DNA of 20,000 bases, from the IMG/VR virus record IMGVR_UViG_3300000117_000018. One strand, written 5' to 3'. How positions within the stretch are numbered: position 1 is the stretch's first letter; the number at the start of each line of letters is the position of its first letter. Made by a program: the position numbers and the translations under genes. This document shows, piece by piece, positions 9,397 to 20,000 of this stretch. The notes below the pieces were generated by a model. The model was not told where the DNA came from, ran no database searches, and saw only the letters and a program-made list of their open reading frames with translations. Origin of the DNA: an uncultured virus (IMG/VR IMGVR_UViG_3300000117_000018). Taxonomy: Duplodnaviria > Heunggongvirae > Uroviricota > Caudoviricetes.

Positions 9397-10080
9397 ATGG
9401 CTGCAAAAACATTAAAACTTCGTTTAGAAGATATGATGGAAGTAGATCCATTAACTCCTAATCAACGCAAAGCTTATGAGGCATACGAAGATGGCAACTC
9501 ACTCGTACTCGCTGGATCCGCAGGAACTGGCAAAACATTTATGGCGTTATCCCTGGCTCTTGAAGATGCACTTGACAAAGAAATGCAATATGACAAAGTA
9601 GTCATTATTCGTTCTATTGTACCTACAAGGGACATCGGATTTTTGCCGGGTGATGAAGAAGAAAAGAAAGACGCATATACTGGTCCTTATAGGTCTATTT
9701 GCGCTGAATTATTTAATGATGCCGATGCATGGATGAAACTTAAAAATGCAGGCACAATCAATTTCATGTCCACGTCTTTTATCCGTGGCTTGACTATCTC
9801 TAATGCTATTGTAGTATTAGATGAAATGCAAAACCTTACATTTCATGAGCTTGACTCTATTATTACTCGTGTGGGTGATAATTGCAGGTTCATTATGTGT
9901 GGTGATTACTACCAATCAGATTTTCAGAAAGAAGGAGACAAAGCTGGAATACTTAAATTTCTTTCTATCATAGAACAGCTCCGAGCATTTGAGACTGTAG
10001 AGTTTGGATGGGAAGACATTGTACGATCTGATTTCGTACGAGACTATATAATGACCAAGGAAATGTTGCAAATTAAATAG
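9397..10080 (+). CDS. phoH: PhoH-like ATPase
   Basis: GSAGTGKT Walker A, IGFLPG, FIRGLT, VLDEMQN, ITRVG, GDYYQSD, DIVRS motifs. Confidence 0.96.
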   Translation: MAAKTLKLRLEDMMEVDPLTPNQRKAYEAYEDGNSLVLAGSAGTGKTFMALSLALEDALDKEMQYDKVVIIRSIVPTRDIGFLPGDEEEKKDAYTGPYRSICAELFNDADAWMKLKNAGTINFMSTSFIRGLTISNAIVVLDEMQNLTFHELDSIITRVGDNCRFIMCGDYYQSDFQKEGDKAGILKFLSIIEQLRAFETVEFGWEDIVRSDFVRDYIMTKEMLQIK

Positions 10081-11040: not shown

Positions 11041-11508
11041 ATGGATCAACTCAGCAAGAAGGTAAAAAAAATGGAATTAGGTAACCCGATTATAACAACT
11101 ATGGTAGGACTCGTAGTGTTCTATATAGGACTAAAAATGTTTTCTGGTGGAATGAAGTCAATGGGCAATATGGATCATTTGGCTTGGTTTACCGGCAATT
11201 ATATCTACATGTTTCTAGGTGGTATTGTTATGACACTATTGTGGCANTCNTCTAGTCTATCAACGACTGCNATTATTGCTCTTGTAGCATCAGGAGCTGT
11301 ACCACTTCCAGCGGCCATTGCTGCAGTACTTGGAGCAAACATTGGAACGACCGGCACTATTTGGATAGCCGGTCTTTTAGTATCTGATGGTATGCCTAAA
11401 GGTGATACATTAAGAATTGCAATTGCTCATAGTGGAGTGAACCTCTTTATGGCTGCAACTCTTTTACCTTTCGTACATCATATTGCTAGATTCCTAGGGA
11501 GATTCTAA
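11041..11508 (+). CDS. Na+/Pi cotransporter (SLC34/NptA family), single-repeat half-size form
   Basis: GLKMFSGGMK, LW(Q)SSSLSTT and GANIGTT signatures; highly hydrophobic. Start could be 11071. Confidence 0.85.
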   Translation: MDQLSKKVKKMELGNPIITTMVGLVVFYIGLKMFSGGMKSMGNMDHLAWFTGNYIYMFLGGIVMTLLWXXSSLSTTXIIALVASGAVPLPAAIAAVLGANIGTTGTIWIAGLLVSDGMPKGDTLRIAIAHSGVNLFMAATLLPFVHHIARFLGRF

Positions 11509-16029: not shown

Positions 16030-17895
16030 TTACCTTAAGTTAGGATATTGTAAATTCTCCATCGCTCCAAAGTTTGGGTCATTCAAAAACCATCTAGCAT
16101 AAGCATGATCTACAGTAGGCTTTGGTGGATAGAAATTTACTTGATTAACATTTTCTTTTTCTCCATAATCACTAAAATCTGGTACAAAACTTATAAGTGC
16201 CAGAAGTCGTCGTTGTATATTCATCTGCTGCTCTAAAGTAACAGCGTTCTCTAATTCCTTAGTAGCCTCAATAGCCTTTTGAGCTATAAGCCATTTTATT
16301 TTTTGTCTTTTACTAGCATCCGGACTGAGAACGTTTTCCCGTTTACTGTTTTTTGTTGCATCACCCACCTTGTTGGGCCCCTCATTACTACCGGCGACTT
16401 GTACTCCATCCTCGAGTGTCGACTCTGAGTCCCCTTCGCTGGTATCCGATTCTTGTTCCAATTCCGCGATTTCTTTTTCAATGTCATCCTCCATAACTTT
16501 TTTACCACCTGCATTTGTGGGATCGTCAAAGTCATTTTCCGATGATGTAGAATCTTCCAATTGAGCTATTTCTTTTTCAATATCGTCTTCCATGTTCATA
16601 GCATCACCTTCGTTCTCTAGTTCAGCTATTTCACGTTCAATATCGTCTTCTAGTACTTGTTGGTATTCATCTATCTCTATTGCTTCGGGTTCAACCTCAA
16701 CTATTTCTTCTGTATACGTTTGTGTGTATACGGGAATTTCTGGTTCAAATAATTCTGTTTGTACTTCAGCGTTAACAACATCATCCACAATGGGATCTAG
16801 TACTGTAAAGTCTCCATCATTACCAGAAAGATCAACATAACCAGGACACATAGTATTATACTGAGCATCTAATCCACATTGCTGATCAAAATAAGCTGTA
16901 TCATATCCAATACAACCCATGTCATACAAAGGATTTTTTTCACATTGCGCTACAAAATAATCTGGACAGCCAGGATCTGATAACGGATCATTAGTACATT
17001 GTTGGTTATAATATGCCGTTTGATAGCCAGGACATGATGGATCGTATAAAACACTAATAGCACATTGCTGGTTCAAGTAAGCAGTAGCATAGCCAGGACA
17101 GCTTGGATCATATAAAGGATTTTGTGTACACTGTTGTTGGAACAGTGCGTTGGCATATCCAGGACAGCTTGGATCTGAAAGTGGTCCATTAAGTGTACAG
17201 TTATCTGGCATAAGTATAACTGAGCCAGTCATGTTTTGTACTTTAGGTCCATACATTCCTTGCCAGTAACCATTGTCAACACCTCTAATAGTAACTTCAA
17301 TTTCGTCAATAGTTAAACCTGGAACTAACGCTAGTGGAGAAAAAGTTAAGACATCTTCAACAGTCCAACCATTTGATTTGGTCTGGCTATAATCCCACTC
17401 TTCGCTGTAGATGTTAATACCACTTGCATAAGCATCAATAGTAATCACCAAATCATCTAAGCAATCACCGTTTACTTTGGTTACATTACATGCACCATTG
17501 ATTGTGTTAATGTTTTCGTTTTTCCAATCCCACTGAGCAGCATAGCCACCAATATTAAACCCTGCACCTGCAAGTGCTTGGTTGATAGCCATGTTTGTCA
17601 CCCACGTATCATTAGTGTGTGAAAAGTGAAGAATGTAATCGGTACTAGTAAGAGTGCTTCCAGTGTAGTTGTTATATTGCTGGTTTTGAGATTTACCTGT
17701 ATTATGACGACCTGTACCAAAGTCACCTTGGTCAAGTATCTGCTTGATAGTATTATCTACTGGATCAAGACACTGTGTACCAGTTAATGGGTTTATAGTA
17801 CCATCAGTTGAAGGTACGCAGTTTGTACTAACTTGTGCGTTACAATAAGAGGAGAAGAAGAGCAAGCCCGCTAATGCCAGCAGCCACCGCCCCAT
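16030..17895 (-). CDS. Large predicted exported protein with Cys-rich tandem repeats and acidic helical repeats
   Basis: Signal-peptide-like MGRWLLALAGLLFFSSYCNA (start 17895 or 17910), beta-rich N domain, six two-Cys repeats and three EDDIEkEIAeLE repeats. Confidence 0.85.
   Translation of the reverse strand: MGRWLLALAGLLFFSSYCNAQVSTNCVPSTDGTINPLTGTQCLDPVDNTIKQILDQGDFGTGRHNTGKSQNQQYNNYTGSTLTSTDYILHFSHTNDTWVTNMAINQALAGAGFNIGGYAAQWDWKNENINTINGACNVTKVNGDCLDDLVITIDAYASGINIYSEEWDYSQTKSNGWTVEDVLTFSPLALVPGLTIDEIEVTIRGVDNGYWQGMYGPKVQNMTGSVILMPDNCTLNGPLSDPSCPGYANALFQQQCTQNPLYDPSCPGYATAYLNQQCAISVLYDPSCPGYQTAYYNQQCTNDPLSDPGCPDYFVAQCEKNPLYDMGCIGYDTAYFDQQCGLDAQYNTMCPGYVDLSGNDGDFTVLDPIVDDVVNAEVQTELFEPEIPVYTQTYTEEIVEVEPEAIEIDEYQQVLEDDIEREIAELENEGDAMNMEDDIEKEIAQLEDSTSSENDFDDPTNAGGKKVMEDDIEKEIAELEQESDTSEGDSESTLEDGVQVAGSNEGPNKVGDATKNSKRENVLSPDASKRQKIKWLIAQKAIEATKELENAVTLEQQMNIQRRLLALISFVPDFSDYGEKENVNQVNFYPPKPTVDHAYARWFLNDPNFGAMENLQYPNLR
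16456..16650 (-). repeat. Three copies of EDDIE(K/R)EIA(E/Q)LE
   Basis: Seen in translation; approximately 16615-16650, 16555-16590 and 16456-16491. Confidence 0.85.
16837..17199 (-). repeat. Six Cys-pair repeats (about 22 aa period, CxxxPLYDPSCPGY-like)
   Basis: CTLNGPLSDPSCPGY, CTQNPLYDPSCPGY, CAISVLYDPSCPGY, CTNDPLSDPGCPDY, CEKNPLYDMGCIGY, CGLDAQYNTMCPGY. Confidence 0.9.
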
Positions 17896-18403
17896 TTCTT
17901 TTTTGAACATCCTTTTTTGTCTCCATTACTTCTACAGGTGGAATACGATCTGGATTTGCTTTCCAACCGTCAGTGGCTTTATCACCAATTTCACCTAAGA
18001 ACGGACAAGGTGTTCCTGCCATTTCCATTGCATTATATACTCTACGGTCTTGGCACAGTACAGATACTGCAGCCACTTTCATTCCCATATCATATAATGT
18101 TTTACTTATTTTCAACCTTTCACAATTTTCGTCTCTTACCATTTCCCCTGTAGATATTCCAAGGATCTGAGTTTGCACAGCAGCCGAAACTCCAACGGTA
18201 CATAAATCTGACGATGATGAGCCAACACTTGGCGAGATAGCCGAAGGTGGCGGTGAGATAACAATAGTTCTAGAATTCGCATCTGTATTTACAGTGGAAT
18301 TTGACTTTGAGTCTGTAATTACATTGCTTGTAGTCTGAGCTAAAGCAGTGTTTGACAGAAGCGCTAATCCAAATACTAACGCTATAATGTTTTTGTANTT
18401 CAT
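17840..18403 (-). CDS. Predicted exported Cys-containing protein with C-terminal hydrophobic tail
   Basis: Signal peptide (…ALLSNTALA|Q), S/T-rich linker, SPPPSAISP, four Cys, tail GAVAAGISGLALLLLLL*. Confidence 0.82.
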   Translation of the reverse strand: MXYKNIIALVFGLALLSNTALAQTTSNVITDSKSNSTVNTDANSRTIVISPPPSAISPSVGSSSSDLCTVGVSAAVQTQILGISTGEMVRDENCERLKISKTLYDMGMKVAAVSVLCQDRRVYNAMEMAGTPCPFLGEIGDKATDGWKANPDRIPPVEVMETKKDVQKRNGAVAAGISGLALLLLLL

Positions 18404-18473: not shown

Positions 18474-18530
18474 TTTACAATTGCTAAAAAGTATGATATA
18501 ATATATCTATAAAATGGAAAAGGAAGGAAA
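18474..18530 (+). promoter_or_regulatory. Early promoter + conserved leader/SD cassette
   Basis: TTTACA (18474-18479)-N17-TATAAT (18497-18502), then ATATCTATAAAATGGAAAAGGAAGGAAA. Confidence 0.88.
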
Positions 18531-19033: not shown

Positions 19034-19091
19034 TTTACAATTAACTAAAACTGTGTTATAATATATGTATAAAATGAAAAAAGGAAGGAAA
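19034..19091 (+). promoter_or_regulatory. Early promoter + conserved leader/SD cassette
   Basis: TTTACA (19034-19039)-N17-TATAAT (19057-19062), then ATATGTATAAAATGAAAAAAGGAAGGAAA. Confidence 0.88.
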
Positions 19092-19095
19092 TAAA

Positions 19096-19317
19096 ATGGG
19101 AAAAGTTAAAGGATTAGTTATGGATATCGAAGAAGAACTTTACGGTATCGATAACTTTGAAGATATGATCTCTGAGTCAGAGTCATATTCTCAGTTCACC
19201 ATGAAGCTTTTGGAAAAACCACAGTTCAATAAGATACATGAGCAGTATGGTTCTTCATGGGTTCGAGGAGTTCTACTAGATATGTGGAACGAGTACTGGG
19301 GTACTCAGTACGTATAA
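19096..19317 (+). CDS. Hypothetical early protein
   Basis: 73 aa ORF, MGKVKGLVMDIEE, after a strong SD. Confidence 0.78.
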   Translation: MGKVKGLVMDIEEELYGIDNFEDMISESESYSQFTMKLLEKPQFNKIHEQYGSSWVRGVLLDMWNEYWGTQYV

Positions 19318-19320
19318 ATA
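19313..19320 (+). promoter_or_regulatory. T4-type late promoter TATAAATA upstream of tmRNA
   Basis: Exact consensus immediately before the acceptor piece. Confidence 0.75.
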
Positions 19321-19325
19321 AGAAA

Positions 19326-19645
19326 GTAGTGATGAAGCAATTCAAACGCTAGACAGGACGCGGGGGCAGTACCCGCCGCCTCCACCATAACTACACTGGC
19401 GTGTGACGATATAAGTCCACGAAATTCAGTATAGTGCGGAACAATGATTACGGTTTCAGTGTAGTTATGATGGGGGCGAACTAGGATCGACTGGTAGTCA
19501 TTAGAAAAGTGGAGCTATCCCGCGCAAGCTGGGTTAACGCAAGAAAAAGACTAAACGCAAACGATAATTTTGCACCTGTGGATTATGCCTTAGCGGCATA
19601 GTTTAACGGGGTCCGGAGGTACCTAGCAACAGAAACCTCCAACTA
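19326..19645 (+). ncRNA. ssrA: Two-piece (circularly permuted) tmRNA, alphaproteobacterial type; outer ends approximate
   Basis: Acceptor piece has T-arm GCGGG-GGCAGTA-CCCGC then CGCCTCC-A-CCA ending 19387. Coding piece starts GGGGGCG at 19472 (7 bp acceptor stem with G3-U). Tag 19557-19601 reads ANDNFAPVDYALAA*. Confidence 0.95.
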
Positions 19646-19665
19646 ATTTTTTACAGGAGACTTGA

Positions 19666-20000
19666 ATGCCGCCTAGAAATCATAAAAATTGGTTAGCTAC
19701 ACCAAACGTAGAATACATATCAAGCGAGTGCTATAATAACGCTGATATTTTTGCCCAAGAACAAGAAAGAATTTTTTCAAAAGTTTGGGTTCCTATGTGT
19801 CACATTTCTGAAATGTATAATAAATTTGAGTTTAGAACAACACAAATCGCAGGTCAAAATGTTATTGCGTGGAATACTGGAGATAGGGTTAAAACATACT
19901 TGAATAACGGTCCACAACAACCTTCTGGCAAAGTATGGAATGATGATACTTTTGGTAAAGAGTTACATTGTGAAGTAAAACATGGTGGAATGGTATGGGT
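19666..20000 (+). CDS. Aromatic ring-hydroxylating dioxygenase alpha-subunit-like protein (partial; Rieske motifs apparently absent)
   Basis: SD AGGAG; open to the window end. MPPRNHK...ISSECYNNADIFAQEQERIFSKVWVPMCHISEM...FRTTQIAGQNVIAW...YLN...LHCEVKHGGMVW. Confidence 0.75.
   Translation, partial: MPPRNHKNWLATPNVEYISSECYNNADIFAQEQERIFSKVWVPMCHISEMYNKFEFRTTQIAGQNVIAWNTGDRVKTYLNNGPQQPSGKVWNDDTFGKELHCEVKHGGMVW

Follow-up and report, generated by a model that had tools for sequence, protein, structure and literature searches.

The 20,000-nt stretch of DNA analyzed here (the window) is a segment of a T4-like phage carrying nrdA/B, phoH, exonucleases, and an endolysin. An ORF on the + strand starts with ATG at 19666, and its frame stays open to position 20000; these 111 codons (19666..20000) are the 5' part of a gene for a Rieske-less MsmA, the alpha subunit of methanesulfonate monooxygenase, here called MsmA2. 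It is preceded by a ribosome-binding site, AGGAG (19655..19659, +), 6 nt 5' of the ATG. Elsewhere in the window, phoH (9397-10080) is accompanied by a short Na+/Pi cotransporter-like gene (11041-11508; PF02690, E 1.5e-13) that contains N bases, and the minus strand encodes two adjoining secreted-looking proteins: one of 626 aa (16030-17910), with Cys-rich repeats and an acidic tail, lacking a Pfam or PHROG match and present in 7 phage loci, and one of 187 aa (17840-18403).

Directly upstream of the ORF lies a two-piece (permuted) tmRNA of the alphaproteobacterial type with the tag ANDNFAPVDYALAA (19325..19644, +), identified by Rfam (RF01849 at 19250-19644, RF04321 at 19325-19601) and ARAGORN. 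The 3' end at 19692 given by ARAGORN is overcalled; the tmRNA stops 21 nt 5' of the ATG. A 73-aa ORF with no Pfam or PHROG match (19096..19317, +) separates the tmRNA from a sigma-70-like promoter, TTTACA-17-TATAAT with TG (11/12), at 19034..19062 (+), identified by consensus match only; it is the nearest + strand match upstream of the tmRNA and msmA2, and is repeated at 18474-18502. The consensus scan yielded 6 sites vs 5.7 expected, these two being near-perfect and situated within a DNA repeat. This promoter/RBS repeat of approximately 70 nt, the copies of which are 86% identical, likely represents phage early promoters. The consensus scan shows no + strand promoter or terminator between the tmRNA and the ORF.

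In 4/4 RNA libraries, contigs match parts of the ORF, although they do not tell the level, the strand, or DNA carry-over; they are consistent with expression of msmA2. Co-transcription with the tmRNA is plausible: one RNA contig (X3 record 15) bridges the tmRNA and the ORF with 1 difference in 474 nt, although a single bridging contig does not prove a single transcript. RNA contigs also show a joint that skips approximately 75 nt at positions 1869-1945 of metagenome contig L160 (described below), with other letters between, in the intervening segment of the tmRNA; these are probably related tmRNA alleles. Of 85 phage-type loci, 35 show a tmRNA-like match, which in 21 ends at most 25 nt from the msmA2 start (both counts include near-duplicate loci). 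Since no tmRNA is annotated beside the gene in phage HMO-2011, the link is common, not required. Among five host genomes, three have a tmRNA match and two tags could be read; neither is the phage's.

The original prediction described the ORF as a homolog of ring-hydroxylating dioxygenase (RHO) alpha subunits with an in-frame loss of the cluster-binding subdomain. The N-terminal RHO-alpha pattern that it traced up to YLN at 19897-19905 reflects real similarity, as the 111-aa fragment matches CntA (E 1.8e-5) and TIGR03228 (E 6.9e-7), with no RHO match of the fragment in Pfam. The alignment shows a retained base of the Rieske domain, from WVPMCH to YLN (19786..19905, +; AF2 pLDDT 92-97 over residues 31-140), followed by a linker (19906..19962, +) that stands where canonical MsmA has a cluster-binding stretch of 67 residues. 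This linker has exactly 19 residues between YLN and LHCEVK at 19963, in agreement with the predicted number of approximately 19, free of Cys and His; within it, a remnant xPSG can be aligned with the 26-aa spacer specific to MsmA. From the WVP.CH motif to the GG..W strand, 58/58 canonical MsmA span 120 aa and 86/86 Rieske-less genes 70-73 aa, hence the deletion amounts to approximately 48-50 residues and includes all four Rieske ligands. The predicted figure of roughly 60 residues thus corresponds to the size of the segment that was replaced (67 residues, vs 19 in its place), and not to the gap itself. The alignment supports the in-frame loss itself in all 86 genes.

Codons past 111 were taken from L160, which is identical to the window at 334/335 nt over the ORF part (99.7%) and at 97.3% over 1.6 kb, and not from the window's own DNA. 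An exact DNA pattern from the window has no match in viral contigs, and a second pattern led to L160 in metagenomes; the nearest virus record (G001), a 5-kb fragment only, has no match and is uninformative. The full-length ORF in L160 has 354 aa with no internal stop. Beyond the window end, its protein contains Glu165, His168, His172, and Asp297 (E165-F-Y-H168...H172, D297), which we take to be the bridging Glu and the iron ligands by motif analogy, and not from a solved MsmA structure. The 2-His-1-Asp triad to be sought downstream is hence present, and it is kept in 86/86 Rieske-less genes. The + frames of 19601-20000 and the 354-aa protein are all free of CxH/CxxH motifs. Neither such a motif downstream, nor an early stop, nor a lack of RHO similarity, any of which would speak against the original prediction, was found.

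Full-length relatives reach the Pfam cut-off for Ring_hydroxyl_A (PF00848) and do not reach that for Rieske (3/3); PHROGs contain no family matching Rieske-less MsmA. The overall identity of the L160 protein to the 58 canonical MsmA genes is 60-65%, and the MsmA2 catalytic domain is 79% identical to the canonical consensus. An AF2 model from a 58-row alignment (pLDDT 77.7, pTM 0.82) has the alpha-subunit fold, its best Foldseek matches (E to 2e-19, TM ~0.7) being CntA and terephthalate dioxygenase alpha subunits, and the truncated Rieske base is predicted to fold; the iron-binding segments 166-186 and 291-307 have pLDDT <50, and the model carries no information on iron geometry. The allele itself (window 19666-20000, L160:607-1668) combines three segments like those of other phage alleles in a recombinant mosaic: codons 1-35 resemble L025/L026 at 99%, codons 36-105 L002/L007 at 94-96%, and codons 141-315 L001/L006 at 98-100%. 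Judged by its sequence, the ORF is MsmA minus the cluster region, and not a pseudogene. The original prediction was thus right about the superfamily, but it did not recognize the MsmA family or the earlier printed notice of this form: the gene adds one more case to an oddity already in print, and by the motif test it is not a canonical MsmA.

A scan of viral sequences with MsmA2 yielded 230 related stretches, from which 79 loci were kept; 70 of these contain a complete ORF of 349-363 aa, and the remaining nine run off the contig. In a protein search, the best 120 of 1198 matches all lack the Rieske motif (120/120), and the named ones among these 120 are mostly called "methanesulfonate monooxygenase large subunit". 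One of the 120 (P0103) fails the His-pair pattern, its His being intact but the adjacent Tyr changed to Asp. The only match in a deposited phage is gp61 of HMO-2011 (69%), present as two records of one genome. No partner gene was found in the phages: 81 phage sequences (80 loci with 567 kb in total, and the window) contain msmA2 only, with no msmA1, B, C, D, or E; viral scans for MsmA1 and MsmB gave 0 matches, vs 230 stretches for MsmA2, although they used single proteins and so reach close relatives only. The absence of MsmC and the reductase refers to the fetched loci. On one phage-like contig, a gene for an AprB-type ferredoxin (L100:5532-6011; PF12139) overlaps the msmA2 start, being a second sulfur-related gene there.

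Among 80 genome loci, 58 encode canonical MsmA with the Rieske motif and the iron ligands, and 22 are Rieske-less. Five of the latter (L080, L081, L096, L098, L100) have phage-like neighbors and were counted as phage-type; the other 17 are chromosomal, with labels including SAR116/Puniceispirillum, two Rhodobacteraceae, and one Magnetovibrio, among others. Their typical gene order is msmE (on the opposite strand), a protein of approximately 800 aa, msmB, msmC, a 275-aa unknown, msmA2, LysR, TauE, and C1 genes; some of these split clusters have dmsABC-like or transporter genes inserted. The ~800-aa protein, here called MsmA1, has the MsmA-specific motif CXH-X26-CXXH; its catalytic domain is degenerate, and a Pyr_redox_2/Reductase_C reductase of the glutathione-reductase type is fused to it. 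MsmC keeps its Rieske motif in 3/3 split loci read, and no GST match (NdmE-like) is found among the cluster genes of L085. The 275-aa gene (L085:4953-5792 and relatives) precedes msmA2 in most split loci, with no Pfam match and DUF5996-like by Atlas features; as it is also found in 28/58 canonical loci, it was rejected as a split-specific partner.

In the family of genome G004 (96 genomes), 16 genomes match, and 14/16 have both halves; the other two both lie at contig ends. In G012, MsmA1 is at a contig end; in G047, only the MsmA1 reductase tail is seen, at a contig edge; and in G099, MsmA2 is on a contig starting inside msmB. None of the complete Rieske-bearing matches in this family has the iron ligands (one 176-aa fragment from G005 was left unclassed in this count). 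Canonical MsmD, found in the canonical-type control G006, was not found in any of four split-type genomes, including one that is a single contig of 2.75 Mb; none of five canonical-type genomes has an extra MsmA2 copy. The chromosomes of the SAR116 family and of a few other marine Alphaproteobacteria are thus shown, at the level of gene content and residues, to encode the MsmA alpha subunit as two complementary paralogs clustered with msmB, msmC, and msmE. Split clusters in records labelled Rhodobacteraceae, Planktomarina, and Magnetovibrio (L090, L091, L097) reflect either lineage transfer or a binning error. One Puniceispirillales record (L123) has canonical msmABCD, its Rieske domain being weakly placed as sister to MsmA1 (87/71). 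In L169 and in L197:14237-16600 (G002), MsmA1 is a 341-aa ORF with the reductase in another frame, due to a sequencing error or a natural fission.

Conservation was compared over 58 canonical MsmA, 14 MsmA1, 20 cellular MsmA2, and 66 phage-type MsmA2 distinct genes, with identical DNA and partial ORFs removed and L169 dropped. The two paralogs are mirror images of each other. The cluster ligands C86, H88, C115, and H118 are all present in 58/58 canonical MsmA and 14/14 MsmA1; in 86/86 MsmA2, C115 and H118 are deleted and C86 is replaced. Conversely, E217, H220, H224, and D349 (the bridging Glu and the iron triad) are all present in 58/58 canonical MsmA and 86/86 MsmA2, including 66/66 phage-type; in MsmA1, E217, H220, and D349 are absent (14/14), and one sequence has His aligned at 224. 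Phage-type MsmA2 keeps 112/118 canonical-invariant positions in the catalytic domain, 7/8 in the N-terminus, and 1/39 in the cluster region; MsmA1 keeps 19/118, 1/8, and 38/39, respectively. Changes are seen in most MsmA2 at H226 and T230, two positions invariant in canonical MsmA that lie shortly past the second iron His. Among 50 matches of a protein search with the MsmA1 N-terminus, 38 are fusions of a long-spacer Rieske domain with a reductase, and the His pair is missing in all of them (38/38). An HED match in P0129 falls in the reductase domain and is a chance match.

Selection follows the same division. Catalytic-domain dN/dS is 0.04 in phage-type MsmA2, 0.009 in cellular MsmA2, and 0.17 in MsmA1; in the cluster region or its remnant, the values are 0.54, 0.076, and 0.011, respectively (all pooled from pairwise comparisons with non-independent pairs: 182/2145 phage-type, 13/190 cellular, and 6/91 MsmA1). 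For the whole gene, phage-type MsmA2 has dN/dS of 0.084, and the deletion is shared among phage homologs under purifying selection. In the tree, a branch with support 100 separates 72 Rieske-less rows from 22 canonical rows, and MsmA1 is set apart from canonical MsmA by a branch with support 99/98. The catalytic-domain tree places the cellular MsmA2 clade (support 94) among phage-type sequences. Host MsmA2 is 79-82% identical to L160, and phage and cellular MsmA2 have four near-fixed differences, all in the first 154 residues.

Given these patterns, MsmA2 most likely works as half of an enzyme of the canonical MsmA type. In Rieske oxygenases, the cluster of one alpha subunit adjoins the iron of its neighbor (PMC9939785, in the part available to us). 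As the cluster of one alpha subunit feeds the iron of the next, the cluster and the iron need not share one chain; and because electrons pass between adjacent alpha subunits, MsmA1 and MsmA2 would be expected to assemble, together with MsmB. We consider it rather probable that MsmA1 donates electrons to MsmA2 in one complex, and that the phage supplies an extra or replacement MsmA2 to the split host oxygenase. Electrons would pass from NADH to the FAD of MsmA1, to the MsmC ferredoxin, to the Rieske cluster of MsmA1, and via the bridging Glu to the iron of MsmA2; the products from methanesulfonate would be formaldehyde and sulfite. Phage MsmA2 may be made in infection, adding to or replacing the host catalytic half, and the phage might thereby sustain its supply of sulfur, C1 units, or energy; both of these steps are weaker inferences.

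Several points count against such a split enzyme. A three-membered ring with mixed alpha subunits would have one working site only, hence no clear gain; and, in the part of PMC4433239 available to us, isolates proven to grow on MSA all have the long-spacer motif in MsmA. The tmRNA tag of this phage differs from both host tags read, and the AF2 model is poor at the iron-binding segments. Iron saving was not adopted as a reason for the split, as three irons per site are still required in a one-to-one pair.

Other explanations were weighed against the same data. The functional options of the original prediction, a cluster-free mononuclear-iron enzyme, a ligand-binding protein, or a decoy subunit, miss the best-fitting reading, that of a split partner, although a retained mononuclear-iron site is supported. 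MsmA2 could work without the MsmA1 cluster if the MsmC ferredoxin or peroxide reduced its iron directly, perhaps docking at the deletion, with MsmA1 as a reductase only. The Rieske motif kept by MsmC in all three split loci read, the folded base that the model predicts at the deletion, and the presence of MsmA2 alone in phages would fit this; however, a plain reductase has no need of the 38/39 cluster positions that MsmA1 keeps at dN/dS 0.011, the bridging Glu is retained in 86/86 MsmA2, and the phage linker, at dN/dS 0.54, is nearly unconstrained, unlike a docking site. We regard direct reduction as unlikely. It is also unlikely that MsmA2, in phage or host, has a different substrate, or that it binds iron or a sulfonate without catalysis, as a store or a sensor: the changes at H226 and T230 in most MsmA2 point this way, whereas the retention of 112/118 canonical-invariant catalytic positions and the location of cellular copies next to msmE, msmB, msmC, the TauE sulfite exporter, and C1 genes argue against it.

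In a canonical alpha ring, a cluster-less subunit would silence the iron site of its neighbor, as inferred from the subunit-to-subunit electron path; phage MsmA2 might then be a decoy, or dominant-negative, subunit poisoning the host oxygenase, and the four near-fixed differences from cellular MsmA2 in the first 154 residues could be seen in this light. However, a decoy has no need for an iron triad, yet 66/66 phage-type genes keep it at dN/dS 0.04, and the same protein, 79-82% identical to L160, is a normal host gene, making this very improbable. A decaying pseudogene or an assembly artefact could be suspected from the 111 codons in the window alone; the chance of this is practically negligible, as L160 completes the allele with no stop, the motif-to-strand span is 70-73 aa in 86/86 genes, 70/79 viral loci have a complete ORF with the other nine off the contig, and phage-type dN/dS is 0.084. 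At the family level, intact ORFs and selection refute the pseudogene.

Returning to the split oxygenase, a broader reading can be drawn by analogy, which we hold tentatively and regard as nearly as probable as its opposite: the dominant marine Msm of the SAR116 family would be an obligate two-alpha enzyme, of which T4-like phages and podoviruses captured the one-iron chain only, recombining pieces of it and plugging it into the host complex during infection in a psbA-like manner. If true, surveys of msmA by the Rieske motif score the dead half and leave out the working one. The split architecture would account for how the phage form could work despite lacking the cluster that every Rieske oxygenase needs; it would also alter the use of msmA as a marker and would bring to three the natural ways in which a Rieske oxygenase is split. 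Methanesulfonate ranks among the major sulfur intermediates of the sea, and lists of phage auxiliary genes repeatedly include msmA.

Rieske-less MsmA itself has already been printed. As far as the available part of PMC4433239 goes, the Rieske motif is lacking in the HMO-2011 copy, in many sequences from GOS and viromes, and in one of the pair of IMCC1322 proteins annotated as MsmA, the Rieske-bearing one being YP_003552429; the motif-less sequences were left out of its tree for that reason; neither there nor in the available part of PMC4928673, where phage MsmA is speculated to oxidise MSA, is a mechanism for the missing motif or a reductase-fused partner offered. In the parts available to us, viral msmA is reported from marine samples under purifying selection (bioRxiv 2021.01.05.425418); msmA is placed beside dmsABC in SAR116, with no mention of Rieske (PMC8547437 and its preprint); and phages are not mentioned in PMC5068391. 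A split MsmA with a phage-captured catalytic half was not found in the literature searched, nor was any paper on a split or reductase-fused MsmA, in a search short on subscription journals and excluding supplements.

The closest known system is that of HMO-2011, a Puniceispirillum phage infecting a SAR116 strain. Its gp61 (ADW08429.1), annotated as methanesulfonate monooxygenase hydroxylase alpha subunit, is 69% identical over 353 aa to L002, a close relative of the window's gene, and no other msm gene is seen in the 9 kb shown; the window's carrier differs in being T4-like, with the gene following a tmRNA, while none is annotated beside gp61. Canonical MsmABCD (the type of Methylosulfonomonas methylovora M2, also in Filomicrobium, L110, and L123) shares with MsmA2 the catalytic domain, the iron ligands, and the bridging Glu, and cellular MsmA2 copies likewise lie with msmB, msmC, and msmE; it differs in that CXH-X26-CXXH is absent from MsmA2 and located on a separate paralog in split-type genomes, and in that the reductase domain is fused to MsmA1 where MsmD is not found. 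In NdmCDE, the N7-demethylase of the caffeine pathway of Pseudomonas putida CBB5, NdmC has no cluster of its own and draws on the one fused to the NdmD reductase (PMC4408171, in the part available to us, which does not mention a phage copy). The cluster is likewise on a separate reductase-fused chain in the msm system, here in bacteria only, the phage carrying one half; however, the substrate and the family branch are different, and NdmD is an FMN/[2Fe-2S] reductase needing the GST-like NdmE, whereas MsmA1 is a whole degenerate alpha paralog with Pyr_redox_2/Reductase_C, the beta subunit and the ferredoxin being kept. Chlorophyllide a oxygenase (CAO) of Micromonas pusilla is active as two chains, according to the available part of PMC9615114. 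It differs in being eukaryotic, with no beta subunit, no reductase fusion, and an unrelated substrate. One of its chains reportedly carries the cluster and the other the iron. With psbA, cyanophages carry a single catalytic subunit from a multi-subunit complex of the host; the gene undergoes internal recombination, and its turnover argument is established. The proteins are unrelated, and for MsmA2 the turnover argument would apply by analogy only; the likeness to psbA consists in the carriage of one subunit and in its mosaic alleles.
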